Assembly: GCA_964016885.1 (NCBI GenBank) | Contig: OZ024753.1 | Span: 36,270,001 to 36,334,000, forward strand | Length of the DNA: 64,000 nt | DNA from: Eledone cirrhosa | Lineage: Eukaryota | Reading direction: 5' to 3' | Shown here: positions 6,307-62,341 of the stretch, in pieces | How positions within the stretch are numbered: position 1 is the stretch's first letter | Layout: every line of letters starts with the position of its first letter | Notes under the pieces: generated by a model | The model's input: only the letters and a program-made list of their open reading frames with translations | Database searches by the model: none | Told to the model about the DNA's origin: nothing | Made by a program: the position numbers and the translations under genes

Positions 6307-7200
6307 CAGATTCCTACAAACAAACACAGACATGTGAGCTGCTATCAACTTGTACAAAATTTCATGATGTAATTTTCAGTGCTTTTACGACAAGCTTATA
6401 ACAACAGAACCCCAATGTGTTTTGGCTGTACTGCAAACAACAAACCGAACATAGGGGGGCTTGATCTTTATTTAAAGACCCTTTAACATGCTTGAACAGG
6501 CGTTGGGAATCATCGCAGGAACAGCTTTTTATTTTAAATTTTTTCTATTTTCTTTTGTGCGTGTGTATGAGGTGAGGTTGGAGGGTGGAACTAAATAAAA
6601 CGTAATGGCGATGATGATGATGATAATAATAACAATAACAATGATGATGATGATGATGATAATAGTAAGAAGGCGAAGAAGAAGGAGGCAAAGAAGAAGA
6701 AGAAGAAGGCGAAGAAGAAGGCGAAGAAGAAGGCGAAGAAGAAGAAGAAGAAGAAGAAGAAGGATACCTTGATATCTTTTTGTTGGTACTCTGCCAGATA
6801 TTAGTAAAGAAGACATGCAGTCATTTTGGATCTAATCCAGTTAATGACTGGTACCCGTTTTATCCATTCCCGAACGTTAAAGTGTCATGGCCGACTCCTT
6901 TGGGATTTCAAATGGAAACATTAAGGGATCCAAAATAAGTATTTAGCCTGATATTCTAATATTTCTGATACCCCTCATCCCACTGAAATAACACATAAAA
7001 AACACACGTAAGTAACGAGCTACAAAAAGATCAGTTATTAGAGTATCTACAAAACAAGCCAGAACAATACAAACATAAAATATGAAAATGCTGTACCCCT
7101 GCCAGGAACCTTGAGTAATGGGTGGAAGAAAACGATCAAGAAAGAATGCGATCACAAAATCACACGGCCGAAATGTTGTTTCGCCGAAGAGTCTCTAGAG

Positions 7201-7796
7201 CAGGGGTGTGCAACAGGCGGCCCCCGGGCCACAATCCGGCCCGCCAGACCAGTCAGAGTGGCCCGCGATGACCGTTTTTAATTTTTACCTTGTAGGCTTA
7301 TTTAGAATTTTTTTTTCATAACCGTAATACAATTTTCTGTTAGTTGACCTATACTAAAGGGCTTCACTGATAGAGTTATGTGTGTTATAATGTCACAGTT
7401 GACCTCTACTAAAGGGCTCCACTGATAGAGTTATGTGTGTTATAATGTCACAGTTGACCTCTACTAAAGGGCTTCACTGATAGAGTTATGTGTGTTATAA
7501 TGTCACAGTTGACCTCTACTAAAGGGCTTCACTGATAGAGTTATGTGTGTTATAATGTCACAGTTGACCTCTACTAAAGGGCTTCACTGATAGAGTTATG
7601 TGTGTTATAATGTCACAGTTGACCTCTACTAAAGGGCTTCACTGATAGGGTTATGTGTGTTACAATTTCCCAGTTCCATGTTATGGAAAGAAGTTGTGGT
7701 GAATCTTTGGAATAGTGCTTAATAAATATTAATGGCCCTAATAGTTGTTCCAATGTTCAAAAGTGGCCCGCTAATGGAATATGTTGCACACCCCTG
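7201..7796. mobile_element. hAT (Charlie-like) MITE with internal 55-bp minisatellite
   Basis: TIR CAGGGGTGTGCAACA/TGTTGCACACCCCTG. Perfect 8-bp TSD CTCTAGAG (7193-7200, 7797-7804). Six 55-bp units at 7342-7675. Confidence 0.95.
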
Positions 7797-7820
7797 CTCT
7801 AGAGCAGCGTTACTCTATAG

Positions 7821-8159
7821 CAGGGGTTCTCAACCTGGTCCATGTGGACCACGAGTGGTCCACAGGAAAATTCAGGTGGTCCACACACAATTTTCAATAG
7901 CAAATTCTCTTTTGATCCATGCATTTGTCTTAAAGCGCTGTTCTTATTCTTCGCATAAGTACGACTTCAGCTGTTTATTTGCGTAGATTTTTAGGCACTG
8001 CGACATGATAATAGCATTTTCTAATTCATTGAAAAAAAAACATCTACTGATGCTTATAAGTAGCAGTTCTATTACAAAAGATTTAAAAGTTTAGATTGTC
8101 CACAGGAAAAAATTACTTATTTTGGTGGTCCACAGCGAAAAAAAGGTTGAGAACCCCTG
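7821..8159. mobile_element. hAT MITE
   Basis: TIR CAGGGGTTCTCAACCT/AGGTTGAGAACCCCTG. Perfect 8-bp TSD CTCTATAG (7813-7820, 8160-8167). Subterminal GTGGTCCAC repeats. Confidence 0.95.
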
Positions 8160-8290
8160 CTCTATAGTGAGCATACTCGGAGATGAGAGAGTTGCTCGTA
8201 GAGGGTATGAAGAATTGACTTCACTATTGGACCGATACTTTATTTATCGACTTTAAAACTGTAACTAATCTTATCTTCTTATCTTAAGTC

Positions 8291-8788
8291 CACCCTCCTT
8301 CAAAAACGAGGGAGAGGCGGTTTTCCTATATGTTATGTCTATGGTGAAAGAGGTTATATAGTGGACGAGGTTAAAAGGGCTGAGGTCACACACGTTTCTC
8401 TCCGGCGAGCAACTGATTCGTTTTTTCAAATATCATTTTGGAAGAAGAATCAGGATGGAGAGAGAGGTGCTGTACCCCAGCAAATTTTATAAAAGGTGGG
8501 TGAATGTGGCAAAGATGGCCCGAGTGGTTGGGCCTTCGCTCTATTCAAGCCTGTAGGTTGAGGAAAAAGAGGAAGAGAGGAAGGGAGTACTCACTCTTGG
8601 TGCTCCTGTAGATGAGGGTCGTACATTTTTTCTGGGTGTGTACAACTCCTGTGTAACGCCTCCCCCCTATTGGGGATATCAATTGTTATTTGTTATTTTA
8701 TTAATAGTTTTATTTTCATATACCTGTATGTAAACTCCCCATTTGTATTTGTCCCCTTCTTTTGTGCCCTTGTGGCTAATAAAGAAAT
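8291..8788 (+). mobile_element. 5'-truncated Tx1/L1-clade LINE (ORF2 C-terminus + 3'UTR)
   Basis: Frame 8290-8556 reads PPSFKNEGEAVFLYVMSMVKEVI*WTRLKG...FYKRWVNVAKMARVVGPSLYSSL*. AATAAA at ~8778. 12-bp TSD TTATCTTAAGTC (8279-8290, 8789-8800). Clade call rests on recalled C-terminal motif similarity. Confidence 0.75.
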
Positions 8789-9036
8789 TTATCTTAAGTC
8801 GATAGGCAAGATCCACAGACCTCATTCGTCAAATCGGACCATGGAAACAATGCTTCCATTGGTCTTTCCGTTGCTGACACTGGTCGCAATTTCTAGCAAC
8901 TAACACTTAACGCCACCTATAGCACCACCACCATCACCCCAACGCCGCCACTAACTCCAATAACATCATTCTAGCAGACCAGCTGTGTATTGATATTTAA
9001 CCTCGTTCTGAGAAACGTCAATTGCTTGCTCGATTA

Positions 9037-9998
<962 letters not shown>

Positions 9999-13253: not shown

Positions 13254-13312
<59 letters not shown>

Positions 13313-13319
13313 TATATAT

Positions 13320-13508
13320 AACGAAGGAAATGTGGTAAGGAACCAGGTGGACCATAGCGCACCAAAGTACTCAATACTTAGGGTAGTAGAGTGGGTAATA
13401 GGAACGAGTGGGACCCCGACGACTGAGCTCAAGCAGTTTCGACGGCTAATTCAGTCCAGAATTAGCCGTCGAAACGGCTTGAGCTCAACCGTCGGGGTCC
13501 CACTCGTT

Positions 13509-13513
<5 letters not shown>
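13320..13513 (-). mobile_element. Family C TA-embedded fold-back element
   Basis: Homologous to 16321-16524, 49032-49180 and 62273-62341. Hairpin arms 13398-13452/13459-13513. (TA)n on both sides. Confidence 0.88.
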
Positions 13514-13570
<57 letters not shown>

Positions 13571-13648
13571 TCCATTACGAGCTGAAGCTCCGCTAGGGTG
13601 AAACGGTTGTTCTCGGTGTGGTGAACTAACTGTTGTGTTACTTACCAC

Positions 13649-13695
<47 letters not shown>

Positions 13696-14107
13696 CCTCT
13701 CTCTCTCTATATATATAGTAATGATGGTGGTAATGATGTTGATAGTGGGGATGATGAAAATGATGATTATATTACGGGTGATGATGACGATGATGGTGTC
13801 CATGATGATGATGATGATGATGATGATAATGTAGATAACGACAATGGGTATTTGTAGTATAGTGTCAGTTCAGCCAACATGGACGATGGAAGAGAATGGA
13901 ATTAAGTTGAAGATAAAGACTAAAACTACGAATGTCAGAAAAAATGGAAGAGAAATTGGTTTAGTGGACTGGCTACACAAACATTTGTTTAACTGATATA
14001 ATCATGGTGAGGGTTAAACCTGTAGAGTAATCGTGCTAAGCCTTGTGTGTATATAAGCACGTATATATACACACGCACCCACACGTATATAAATGCATGT
14101 GTATATA

Positions 14108-15203
14108 GAGTGGCGGACTGGGTCTAAAAATATTGGTTGCCAGGAGATGAAGGGGGCCTACCTACATATAGAATGCTATCATTTAATTTTTATAATGAAT
14201 AAATAACATTTTCGAAAAATGCATAAGTGGCCACAAAATAGTACAATCAAATTTTTGCGGAAAAATATCTAACTTTTTCCAATAAAAAATATTATGTATT
14301 TTGCGGAATCCAGAGACTTTCAATAGAAGTCGACCCTAAATATTACTAATACCTCTAGGAAAGTCATGAATGACACCACATTTTTTAAACTTTGATTTTG
14401 AAAGTAGGTTTATAATAATCAATTTTCATTATACTTTCGTAGTTGTCTCGGTGGCCTACTTGCAGGAATCGTGGTGATCCTGGTCTGAAGATCGATCCTG
14501 GTCAGGAGTAGGGTTTCCGGTAAATCAATTCAGTTTTTTCTATTGGTTGTAAAATAAAAACTAAAAAAGGTTACGTGTGCCTCCCGATCAGGATTGAACC
14601 CAAGGCCAGGGTCTCCACCATCTCTATTACCTACCGATAGGCCACAGAGACAAGTACGAAAATCTTATGAAAATTCATACTTATAAACCTACTTTCAAAA
14701 TGTTCAGTGTCGTTTAAGCCTTTCTTAATGTTATTGCTCCTACTTAAGGTCGACTTCTAAATCATTTGGGTGTTCCATAAATTACATCCTCGTTTTGTTT
14801 CTAGTATCATATATTTTGGATTCTAGTAATTCCCTGTGGAATTGGTTAATTGTTTTTATTAATTGCTAATTAATAATAATAATTGTTTCTACTTTAGGCA
14901 CAAGGCCAGCAATTACCCAGTGCATTACTGGTACTTTATTTTATCGATCGCGTAAGGATGAAAGGAAAAGTAAACCTCGGCGGGATTTGAACTCAGACTG
15001 TAATTAATAATAATAATAATTGTTAATTGCTTTGCTTAATTGTTTTATTTATTTGAAAAAAAAATGTTATTCTTTCTCTTAGATTTCAGGTATTTTTTTG
15101 AAGCAAAGCATTGGCCCCTAAAATACTACAGTGGGCCTTGCAATGCTACTGTGGGCCCCCTGGGGCCCAGTTGCCATTGGGCAACCTGGCAAGTGCGCCA
15201 CTG
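14108..15203. mobile_element. Old hAT-like MITE (CAGTGGCG-type ends) with nested insertions
   Basis: Imperfect TIR GAGTGGCGGACTGG/CAAGTGCGCCACTG; subterminal GGGCCC motifs; TSD not clean. Contains a fold-back (14294-14787) and a SINE fragment (14881-14997, minus). Confidence 0.6.
14294..14787. mobile_element. Diverged fold-back element whose arms end in inward-facing tRNA-like segments
   Basis: Mirrored blocks TAGAAGTCGACC/GGTCGACTTCTA, TTTTGAAAGTAGGTTTATAA/TTATAAACCTACTTTCAAAA, GTCTCGGTGGCCTA/TAGGCCACAGAGAC. Right arm (minus) has TGGCCTATCGG and GGTTCAATCC. Confidence 0.75.
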
Positions 15204-15408
15204 TATATATGCATGTATATATATATGAATATATATATATAAATATATATATCAGTATATATATATATATATATATATATAAATATATATATCAGTATAT
15301 ATATATATATATATATATATCAGTATATATATATATATATATATCAGTATATATATATATATATATATTTGCGCATGCATATATGTATGTATATCTATCT
15401 ATCTTTCT

Positions 15409-15483
<75 letters not shown>

Positions 15484-15566
15484 CGTGTGTGTACGTATAT
15501 GGTAGATAAACGGAAACAACACAGCAAGCAAACAATACAGCACAATTAGTTTAGCGCTTGAAAAGA

Positions 15567-15605
15567 TTCTTAACGTTTCGGACCACTAGTTCTTCATCAG
15601 AAGAA
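15567..15605 (-). ncRNA. Minimal type I hammerhead ribozyme (family E)
   Basis: Minus strand reads TTCTT CTGATGA AGAACTAGTGGTCC GAAACGTT AAGAA. Stem I TTCTT/AAGAA, palindromic ACGT stem III, stem II partly degraded. Confidence 0.72.
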
Positions 15606-15634
15606 AGAATGATAAATAAAAGAAGAAAGAAAAA

Positions 15635-15714
<80 letters not shown>

Positions 15715-15965
15715 GACTTAAAATCAAGAAGAAAGCAAGAACGGGGGGGGGGTTTCCTCATCAGTTGTCTACTGGCGATCTCGGATATTTCAACGCTTTA
15801 AAGACAATATATCTACCCCCAGCGCGCTCAATAACTAGGTAAGTTATTAGGAAAACGGAGAAGAGAGGGAGGGAAAATAGAAAGGAAAAGGGAAAAAAAG
15901 GGACGAAAAGTGAAGAAAAGAGAAAACAGCGAAAAAAACAACAATGTTGTTTGGTAAAGATATCC

Positions 15966-16017
<52 letters not shown>

Positions 16018-16320
16018 GAAGAGAGAAGAAACATTTAGATATAATTAGTAATAAAATGTATCATACCTAAACTGCTCCTAGATTCCTCGACTACGTAGTT
16101 TCGTGGCATAAACAAAAACAATACATCATAAAGATATAGAGTCCTTGCGAGGTCTGCCAACTTATCAAGAGGATACCTCATTTTACTAGTCTCAAGAACG
16201 CGTCTAGACGACGTGAGAAAGAATCCCAAAAGGCGGAGGGGGAGATAGTCACGCGATATAACGGTCGAGAAACAGAGCTAAGCCTCTTATAACCCCGAAG
16301 AAAATACCATATATATATAT

Positions 16321-16519
16321 AACGAAGGAAATGTGGTAAGGAACCAGGTGGACCATAACGCACCAAAGTACTCAATACCTAGGATAGTAGAGTGGGTAAT
16401 AGGAACGAGTAGGACCCCGACGGCTGAGCCCAAGCCGCCTCGACGGCTAACTCTGGACTTTTTAGTCCAGAGTTAGCCGTCGAGGCGGCTTGGGTTTAGC
16501 CGTCGGGGTCCTACTCGTT

Positions 16520-16524
<5 letters not shown>
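16321..16524 (-). mobile_element. Family C TA-embedded fold-back element
   Basis: Hairpin arms ~16399-16459/16464-16524; homologous to 13320-13513. Confidence 0.88.
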
Positions 16525-29376: not shown

Positions 29377-29416
<40 letters not shown>

Positions 29417-29512
29417 GAAAAGATTCAGGACCTCCACGGCTGAGCTCCGGCCGTTTCGACACCTAGATCCAAACTTGTAGTTTTAAACAATTTGATTTAA
29501 TTTAATAATATT

Positions 29513-29720
29513 ATGATTTGGTAGATCTAGTAAGTTTTTTGTTAACTTCAGTGGGAAGACTTTTAAAGATTCCTGGTTAACTTTCCTGGAGAACTTTCAC
29601 GCATTCGTCAGTGGCGGTTGTCAAACTGAGGCGAGAAAGTTCTCCAGGAAAGTTAACCAGGAATCTTTAAAAAGCTTCCCACTGAAGTTAACAAAGAACT
29701 TACTAGATCTACAAAATCAT
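29513..29720. repeat. ~86-bp-arm inverted repeat with 36-bp spacer
   Basis: 29513-29598 vs 29635-29720, few mismatches. Preceded by a family C-like motif (29418-29470) and followed directly by a SINE (29722-29891). Confidence 0.9.
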
Positions 29721-49031: not shown

Positions 49032-49180
49032 AACGGAGGAAGAGTGGTAAGGAACCAGATGGACCATAACGCACCAGAGTACTCAATATTTAAGGTAGTA
49101 GAGTGGGTAATAGGAAAATGGTCCAGAAATAGCCGTCGAAACGGCTTGAGCTCTGCCGTCGGGGTCAAACATTTTCCTAT
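49032..49180 (-). mobile_element. Family C element with orientation switch
   Basis: 49032-49120 is in one orientation, 49121-49180 in the other; ATAGGAAAATG/CATTTTCCTAT inverted. Confidence 0.85.
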
Positions 49181-58187: not shown

Positions 58188-58332
58188 TGTCCCCAAAAAT
58201 GTATACACACTTCAACAGCATTCTAATAAATATTGCCTATACAGGTAATCAAAGTGTGTATACATTTTGTGGGACATCCTGTATATATATATAGGAAAAG
58301 AGTCAGGACCCTGACGGCTGAGCTCCGGCCGT

Positions 58333-58386
<54 letters not shown>

Positions 58387-61952: not shown

Positions 61953-62272
61953 ATAAATATGACCAAAATCTAAAATGGAAATGGTGGCGGTCAATCAGAG
62001 AGGGGTTCGTCCGGTAGGAGTGAAAGACCCTGGATTATATATATATATATAGGCCAAGCTGTCGAAATGGCAAGAGCCCAGCTGCCGAGCCCCGACTCTT
62101 TGTAATACACACACACACATACATATATGTATATATGTGTGTATGTATGAGTATATATGTGTGTATGTATGAGTATATATGTGTGTATGTATGAGTAAAC
62201 AGGACCGAAGTTTCAAGGTTGCATCATATATAAACTTTATACATACATATCCGTATATTATTTATGTGAGAA

Positions 62273-62338
62273 TGAGTACTCAATAGGAGAAAGTATGACC
62301 CCGACGGCAGAGCTCAAGCCGTTTCGACGGCTATTTCT

Positions 62339-62341
<3 letters not shown>
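62273..62341 (-). mobile_element. Family C fragment
   Basis: GAGTACTCAATAGGA..GACCCCGACGGCAGAGCTCAAGCCGTTTCGACGGCTATTTCTGGA then (TA)n. Confidence 0.8.

Follow-up and report, generated by a model that had tools for sequence, protein, structure and literature searches.

The window, which is the whole stretch of Eledone cirrhosa DNA that was analysed (64,000 nucleotides), contained two hairpins of about 190 bases, at 13321-13512 and 16322-16523, both situated in (TA)n. In each hairpin, an arm without a tail that ended at a position designated site 1 was joined head to head with an arm reaching 78 nt further, to site 2. This one-sided 78-nt tail is a diagnostic feature of Penelope-like elements (PLEs), and in tandem copies it ran on (TATCTAGC) into the 5' UTR and ORF. 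Template positions were numbered from the first T of TTCCTA, taken as 0, and the A at -54, where many arms began, is referred to below as the wall. The following features were distinguished.

13257..13320, no strand: (TA)n target, left flank of the first hairpin, from the sequence
13321..13398, minus strand: first hairpin, 78-nt PLE tail from site 1 (TTCC|TAT) to site 2 (TTCGT|TAT), on one arm only
13399..13452, minus strand: first hairpin, tailed arm, template -48 to +5
13453..13512, plus strand: first hairpin, tail-less arm, from the wall A (-54) of the TYAGTY motif to site 1
13471..13498, plus strand: first hairpin, 3' half of a type I hammerhead, from the sequence and helix tallies over 61 complete arms, with GAAA at 13471-13474, stem III and its loop at 13475-13491, the stem I strand at 13494-13498 and predicted cleavage after 13493
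13513..13568, no strand: (TA)n target, right flank of the first hairpin
16322..16399, minus strand: second hairpin, tail, with one further sense A>G
16400..16459, minus strand: second hairpin, arm bearing the tail, covering -54 to +5; four A>G on the sense strand (-46, -34, -33 and -25) are common to both arms
16460..16463: second hairpin, junction spacer TTTT, a partial match to the template TTT before AGTCC
16464..16523, plus strand: second hairpin, tail-less arm, sharing these four A>G and carrying two C>T of its own
29415..29475, minus strand: single arm of a sister family, also beginning at the equivalent A (AGTT)
49033..49179: third copy, an inverted join, with the inverted tail at 49033-49110, a 10-nt arm at 49111-49120 and a sense arm from -53 at 49121-49179
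58292..58333, minus strand: shorter arm of the sister family
62282..62341, minus strand: fourth copy, a single arm from -52, with an internal deletion in the tail

A sequence-only reading of this window had reported two hairpins and further copies of the same motif, and these were found at the positions given above. It had described the motif as GAAA, stem III, GUC and a stem I strand, with sense sequence beginning at the stem II loop; this description was correct, since the sense sequence began at about AGTCC and the hammerhead 5' half was absent from all four window copies. Only two of the four copies had been considered mirrored, which held for the 13.3-kb and 16.4-kb hairpins but not for the 49-kb copy, which was also an inverted join. 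The one-sided 78-nt tail had gone unmentioned in that reading. The related stem III motifs were present at 29415-29475 and 58292-58333 but belonged to the sister family rather than to the same one. The variants believed to be private to one copy were mostly of another kind: CCTAC was the commonest subfamily allele (42/154 hairpins) and CCCAC a minor one (11/154), in a set of hairpins selected in part because they resembled the 13.3-kb copy; GAAAC was the normal state. Of these variants, the GAGG set in the 16.4-kb copy alone was rare (32 matches). The 13.3-kb copy carried three private arm changes, each confined to one arm. A general repeat search of the window was dominated by microsatellites.

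The genome comprises 3.0 Gb and is rich in microsatellites. The core 18-mer of the hairpins gave 39,170 exact genome matches and the arm-tail junction motif gave 43,220, whereas the reversed control gave 0 in both cases; these counts refer to arms, not loci, and are lower bounds. The hairpin motif was therefore far above chance. As described below, a Penelope-like retrotransposon that carries a ribozyme most often yields these hairpins of about 190 bases when it inserts. In an Rfam scan, the listing covered 150 of 479 matches and contained no hammerhead, only sub-threshold miRNA and other matches, including one to MIR7533.

The 3' half of a hammerhead had been recognised in the hairpins, and copies extending further 5' supplied the remainder. 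A relaxed-pattern genome search yielded 5,821 matches with a complete 5' half (ACCCC, core and the 5' strand of stem II). It had been predicted that such copies would read ACCCC, CTGANGA and GACGGC. ACCCC was confirmed, but the core was mostly YTGANAA and stem II began G(C/T/A)TCGGCTA. In 61 complete arms, the core was UUGANAA in 44, CUGAGAA with a C·A mismatch in 10, CUGAGGA in 6 and UUGAAGA in 1; the six CUGAGGA arms came from deliberate searches for that sequence. Genome searches with CTGANGA returned mostly hairpin centres and unrelated flanks, with about 10 true CUGAGGA copies, the number of true matches being small because the usual core is U3·A8. Across the 61 complete arms, core position N7 was free to vary, stem I was ACCCC:GGGGU in 49 and stem III retained a G·U variant; in stem II, a compensatory G-C to A-U change was found in the sister family. 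The complete copies possessed the 3-8 core pair, GA, GAAA, an NUH site and three helices, as in type I hammerheads. Minimum free energy folding on its own was ambiguous: only 2 of 7 copies adopted the hammerhead fold, and one of these needed a constraint to do so. The longer copies thus carry a complete hammerhead of type I, with U3·A8 in its core, which is a predicted ribozyme; the U3-A8 pair is an already described variant of the PLE core (PMC4209133).

In long copies, the sequence 5' of the ribozyme comprised a 3' UTR of about 1.1 kb and, beyond it, an ORF. At G000:C1:91.47-91.49 Mb, a tandem array consisted of 3,542-bp units with 99.7-100% identity between them. Its unit contained an intact open frame of 717 aa, with reverse transcriptase (RT) followed by a C-terminal GIY-YIG endonuclease (EN), and a complete hammerhead at its 3' end; the ATG lay at +232 from the wall, that is, 231 nt downstream of it. 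The motifs RWR, SDKT, YRDDG, CNCPDRSIC (CxCX5C), NVIY...AYIG (GIY-YIG-like), CNLC (CxxC) and CKH (CxH) were identified in the ORF, RWR being a conservative change from the RWK of the Hydra clade. The N-terminus resembled that of Hydra-1_Obim in a comparison by eye. A Pfam search of the ORF gave 0 matches and a PDB sequence search nothing relevant, so the assignment to PLEs is based on its motifs and on a resemblance to published Hydra proteins judged by eye. Atlas neighbours of the ORF scored 0.96-0.99, and some of their clusters contained GIY-YIG or RVT_1. A single-sequence fold had a pLDDT of 33 and was set aside.

The element displayed the single ORF of EN+ PLEs, as well as their partial tandems or pLTRs, inverted 5'-truncated copy and one-sided tail. 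An inverted 5'-truncated copy with a one-sided tail is standard PLE anatomy (PMC8557442, PMC3846280). RW(K/R), DKT, the CxCX5C linker, CxxC and CxH in EN, and insertion into (TA)n were all present, and the published definition of the Hydra clade includes RWK, DKT, CxCX5C, CxxC, CxH and (TA)n targeting (PMC8557442). Judged from its sequence, the parent is almost certainly a Hydra-clade Penelope-like retroelement. Members of this clade have a canonical hammerhead and are generally shorter than 3 kb, whereas the Eledone element has a variant core, a 3,542-bp unit and a long 3' UTR. Because its ribozyme sequence differs from that of Hydra-1_Obim, the family is distinct from the latter; it would be a new one within a known PLE clade. 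Previously known features are the clade itself, the layout of inverted copy plus tail, the U3·A8 core and the use of two start sites.

The 5' ends of the arms were studied in 96 unselected tailed arms, obtained in genome order from the first 100 arm-tail junction matches, some of which were merged. Fifty-three ended at -48 to -58, 3 at -59 to -92 and 30 were shorter, and the 10 read-through arms ran through the ribozyme 5' half. The wall at -54 was the A of TYAGTY inside the stem II loop, and TTAGT or TCAGT was present there in 53/61 complete arms. The motif resembles the initiator consensus, TCAKTY. Initiator-like motifs in pLTRs have already been reported (PMC2377424, PMC3846280). In the sister family, TTAGTT was kept and arms also began at that A, although the rest of the loop differed. 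No Drosophila-type DPE was found at +28 to +32. About 20 arm ends in the 96-arm set passed 1-5 nt beyond the wall A (TTTAGTCC); consequently, the proposed start would have to be heterogeneous, or these ends reflect stalls or chance T matches.

Many arms ending at the wall carried an additional G. The template base before the wall A was T or C in all complete arms save one shifted match, and never G. In truncated arms with a base other than T at -55, this base was G in 55 of the 100 matches listed, and in 36/68 after removal of the 21/89 for which the other arm or repeats could account; in read-through arms, it was G in 0/61. At the comparison position -51, G was found in 9 of the 100 matches listed. 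The excess was smaller against -57/-58 (47/89 at the wall versus 31/114). Thus, G occurred at the wall in a majority of arms, not in all. In the sister family, it was found in about a third of the 100 matches listed and was often explained by microhomology. At 183 loci, the extra G ended both arms, with a 1-nt spacer between them; this central base was A or T in 49 of the 50 matches listed, and the 15 such loci examined in full spanned several subfamilies. An extra G at the 5' junctions of full-length L1 copies has been read as the cap (PMC11702581), although RTs also add untemplated bases without a cap, R2 adding G and T (PMC13000458).

Four loci held pieces of the unit (4-959, 1-358 and, twice, 1-254), each of which stopped at the wall again, with an apparent template jump before the renewed stop. 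These pieces indicate, at the level of sequence, that a putative RNA beginning at the wall extends into the ORF; none of the 4 candidates examined was a copy from the wall to the 3' end through the whole ORF. Among body-bearing matches, 13/30 were read-through when arrays were counted once. Cleavage at a second GUC (AGUC|CAG) was rejected as the cause of the wall, since templated sequence 5' of this site is retained in many arms. A splice acceptor at TTTAG/TTCAG was also rejected, since the copies retain AG and have no conserved upstream exon. The place where arms stop has the look of an RNA 5' end and not of a block at stem II, and the DNA junctions suggest that a capped mRNA probably starts inside the ribozyme.

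Hairpins were re-formed at each insertion, as had been claimed for the window copies, and little doubt remains on this point. An inverted partner was flagged for 72 of the 96 tailed arms, including 3 at long gaps. A stricter pattern retrieved 43 hairpins with 40 distinct junctions, and none of the 7 identical-junction pairs had a subfamily in common, 1.5 being expected by shuffling. Within a locus, the arms matched in subfamily: a diagnostic 9-mer was the same in both arms of 107 of the 139 scorable hairpins, and most of the other 32 differed by one base. Among full-ribozyme matches, 20 long pairs were picked as opposite-strand neighbours, and all 20 were inverted repeats, with arms of 0.15-1.9 kb. 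It had been expected that arm trees would pair arms within loci. This was the case for 25/40 arms of the long pairs, for which the mate was the closest sequence, and not for the other 15; the tree gives weak support, as it is blurred by unequal overlaps and near-identical young copies. A few arm pairs looked chimeric; one of them, L257, combined two subfamilies and may derive from two RNAs.

The similarity of the arms could also have arisen after insertion, and homogenisation had been offered as an alternative to re-formation. Gene conversion of this kind would fit the 94-100% identity between arms of the long pairs. In short hairpins, rare variants contradicted it, 14 being common to both arms and 211 unshared, in a tally limited to three subfamilies large enough to score; several of the 14 were subfamily misassignments. 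Gene conversion is therefore the most improbable of the explanations considered. Movement of a preformed hairpin as a non-autonomous MITE or SINE would account for the high copy number and for recurrent junctions, one of which had 827 matches; moreover, L196, L327 and L334 look as if whole hairpin RNA had been edited and reinserted. This explanation may hold for a small minority of copies but is very unlikely as a general one. It is contradicted by the 40 distinct junctions among 43 loci, by the seven identical-junction pairs described above and by the persistence of the same architecture with arms of up to 1.9 kb. Junctions varied without tracking subfamily and one end was an unpaired tail, which distinguishes the copies from MITEs. 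An ancestral hairpin MITE, named earlier as the outcome that would overturn re-formation, was thus refuted as the main route by junction variety.

The sequence-only reading had attributed the hairpins to snap-back of a single cDNA at stem II, followed by self-priming. The match between arms within loci and the rare variants they share agree with such a fold-back, and at the junction GGACTC|AGAA a 4-nt loop closed by a G-C pair can be drawn. A fold-back copy cannot contain sequence missing from the first strand, and the tail should therefore be on the arm that reaches furthest 5'. By hand count in the 96-arm set, it was the tail-less arm that extended 5' by at least 5 nt more than its partner in 17 loci, and the tailed arm that did so in 13. 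At TCTGGACTCAGAAW, the most frequent G-ended junction examined (the 827 matches mentioned above), the tail was on the non-G arm in 56 of the 100 matches listed, the state having been read on the right arm. Later asymmetric deletion at the palindrome tip could mask some snap-back events. In addition, the spacers of double-G junctions (0-2 nt) are too short for a priming loop, the second arm halted exactly at site 1 and the A>G changes common to both arms lay on the sense strand. Self-priming by snap-back is accordingly disfavoured and appears quite improbable. Two cDNAs could also have been joined after the RT, copying a longer RNA, paused at a bound protein or at the inner hairpin within stem II, with G arising by ordinary terminal addition. 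A predicted inner hairpin, rich in A/U, does have its 3' foot at the wall, and some arms passed the wall by a few nt; yet this hairpin is weak and folds differently among subfamilies, the sister family halted at the same A despite its different loop, and the G excess was specific to -55. Furthermore, read-through often occurred in both arms, with 22 inverted pairs among the 100 full-ribozyme matches listed. RT pausing is therefore unlikely. Two cDNAs running off an RNA 5' end are the likely source of the hairpins, and the best explanation, which is probably correct, is head-to-head joining of two target-primed cDNAs, each of which would have run to a likely capped mRNA start.

The proposed route of two target-primed cDNAs would proceed as follows. 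An internal promoter in the stem II loop would start the mRNA at the wall; because this start lies inside the loop, the 5' copy on the mRNA would be half a ribozyme, unable to cut off its own cap. The endonuclease would nick both strands of (TA)n, and each nick would prime at one site by a 3-nt TAT match, the two sites being 78 nt apart. On a unit-length mRNA, no more than about 60 nt would separate one site from the cap, and about 138 nt the other, so that both cDNAs would be of the "strong-stop" type. The RT would copy the cap as G and would probably add A, and end-joining would fuse the two cDNA 3' ends, often by 1-2 nt of microhomology. A double-G junction with central A/T could then result from two cDNAs that each ended in C then A and overlapped. 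In most cases, one RNA molecule would probably serve as template for both cDNAs, in agreement with the 9-mer identity in 107/139 hairpins and with the presence of GAGG in both arms of 12/16. Long arms would likely come from read-through RNA of tandem copies; a retrovirus-like strand transfer was not favoured, since long arms come in pairs.

Support for several of these steps comes from an anole PLE, Poseidon_Ac (PAc), studied in vitro (Frangieh et al. 2024, PMC11167929). Its RT starts at two internal sites bounding the tail, its AT-rich target is cut on both strands, and a dimer is predicted. It needs sequence downstream of the tail, and its insertion proceeds without ribozyme cleavage, which is dispensable. 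If the downstream-sequence requirement is carried over by inference from PAc to the Eledone element, short double products would be the default, because such sequence follows only the cap-near sites on a wall-started unit mRNA. The PAc ORF overlaps the ribozyme, whereas the Eledone ATG lies 94 nt past the tail.

The element was also compared with other known systems. It shares ORF order, motifs, (TA)n insertion, a 3' hammerhead and the inverted copy with one-sided tail with the EN+ PLEs of the Hydra clade (Craig et al. 2021, PMC8557442), a set that includes Hydra-1_Obim. It differs from them in its 3.5-kb unit (generally <3 kb), its 78-nt tail (30-40 nt typical), its U3·A8 core and 30-35 nt stem II loop (CUGANGA and short loops in the listed Hydra ribozymes) and in the fact that most of its insertions are stubs of about 190 bp. 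The Schistosoma Cercyon PLE (Cervera and de la Pena 2014, PMC4209133) likewise has a U3·A8 hammerhead with the same core covariation, a palindromic loop 3, an extra base between positions 9 and 10.1 of the pairing region and close opposite-strand ribozymes; in Eledone, by contrast, helix III is a full 4-5 bp and helix II has a long insertion with a likely start site. In L1 twin priming (PMC11702581), both target ends prime one RNA, the cDNAs are end-joined and full-length 5' ends carry an extra G, as proposed or found here, but the L1 cDNAs cover adjacent RNA segments, whereas those of Eledone cover the same segment and give a palindrome. Non-LTR retrozymes (10.64898/2026.07.22.740005) are also short, PLE-derived, hammerhead-related repeats. 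They form head-to-tail tandems of units that each have a whole ribozyme and lack an ORF, unlike the head-to-head halves of Eledone, in which no ribozyme is complete; the tandem units examined in Eledone were full coding units, and the hairpins were not assigned to the retrozymes.

The origin of PLE inverted repeats and one-sided tails has been named as open (PMC8557442), and self-priming on an antisense template has been proposed for PLEs (PMC3846280). A narrow literature search, which missed subscription journals, found nothing linking Penelope-like elements to twin priming or strong-stop DNA, and nothing on edited RNA fixed in retrocopies. We tentatively propose, at somewhat less than even confidence, that an mRNA starting inside its own ribozyme, and thus bearing a disarmed half-hammerhead, is primed on, as a single molecule, from both target ends, giving mostly double strong-stop palindromes, and that the head-to-head repeats of PLEs in general result from twin priming on sense RNA rather than from self-priming on an antisense template. 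The many natural junctions, the sharp predicted start and the near-identical intact array allow a direct test of twin priming against self-priming and of what the ribozyme contributes. The stubs supply unusually direct junction evidence on an open step of PLE mobility. If the proposal is true, each of tens of thousands of junctions is the record of one RNA molecule, with traces of cap copying and, now and then, of A-to-I editing. The family also shows that an abundant repeat of hairpin form, which might be catalogued as a MITE, a SINE or a miRNA precursor, is a by-product of retrotransposition and a large potential source of double-stranded RNA.

The 16.4-kb copy had four A>G changes on the sense strand of both arms and one more in the tail. 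GAAA>GAGG had 32 genome matches, versus 24 for all eight other double changes at this site. GAGG was present in both arms of 12 of the 16 scorable hairpins, with 1 more ambiguous, on 5-6 subfamily backgrounds; the TT>CC control was present in both arms in 0/4 (p=0.014 versus GAGG), at a site confounded by a sister-family allele. Since this control accounted for about 14 of the 100 matches listed, versus 32 for GG, counts alone give only about a twofold excess. Extra A>G changes in GAGG arms numbered 8/282 (p=0.005), 5 of the 8 coming from the window locus, and unselected arms gave no clear general editing signal (A>G 10/1,399; T>C 9/2,176). The shared A>G changes are somewhat better read as fossil A-to-I editing of one RNA copied twice than otherwise, the support being weak to moderate; rare GAGG source copies would account for part of the pattern. 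In L196, L327 and L334, A>G changes were on the same genomic strand in both arms, which suggests occasional reinsertion of an edited whole-hairpin RNA.

The arms of three hairpins (L196, L327 and L334) contained clusters of A>G changes, which were found in both arms and on the same genomic strand. One arm of L334 was changed at the same four sites as the copy at 16.4 kb in the window (hairpin 16322-16523), on another background. In L257, as well as in L069 and L260, the two arms of a single hairpin belonged to different subfamilies, which suggests that two RNA templates were used.

Insertions made of several pieces were found at L503, L504, L505 and L508. In these loci, a short stub came first and was succeeded by jumps to ORF-proximal sites inside the element (positions 959, 358, 254 and 232); each piece was copied back to the same wall, the sharp 5' stop of most arms. 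At L507 (G000:C1:91482401-91492300), the intact tandem array broke up at its 5' end (locus positions 6770-9900). There, a 55-bp ORF segment (unit positions ~1755-1812) was repeated head to tail in more than 55 copies. Nearly all of these copies were 100% identical; possibly, they arose by repeated template jumping or are an assembly artefact.

Copies with CUGAGAA (L141, L157, L300 and others) formed a subfamily whose ribozyme core is mismatched at C3·A8. Because this subfamily was still abundant, comprising approximately one-fifth of the 100 matches listed, ribozyme cleavage may be dispensable for spreading.

Other hammerhead-like motifs and two SINE-like stretches were located in the window:

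1680, - strand, CUGANGA...GAAA motif
5410, - strand, CUGANGA...GAAA motif
~14480-14700, SINE-like stretch
~14880-15000, SINE-like stretch
15600, - strand, CUGANGA...GAAA motif
29611, - strand, CUGANGA...GAAA motif
37785, - strand, CUGANGA...GAAA motif
51653, CUGANGA...GAAA motif
51749, CUGANGA...GAAA motif
53084, CUGANGA...GAAA motif

The eight motifs look like whole hammerheads from other Penelope-like families. Both SINE-like stretches presumably resemble tRNA-derived cephalopod repeats. A GTCGAAA motif with a loop containing GAGC was present at 62050-62100 and was more distant from the main and sister hairpin families. An inverted repeat of a different type, with arms of ~85 nt each, was observed at ~29500-29720; its centre contained a CTGACGA...GAAA motif on the - strand, and a sub-threshold Rfam hairpin match was located at 29564-29669.
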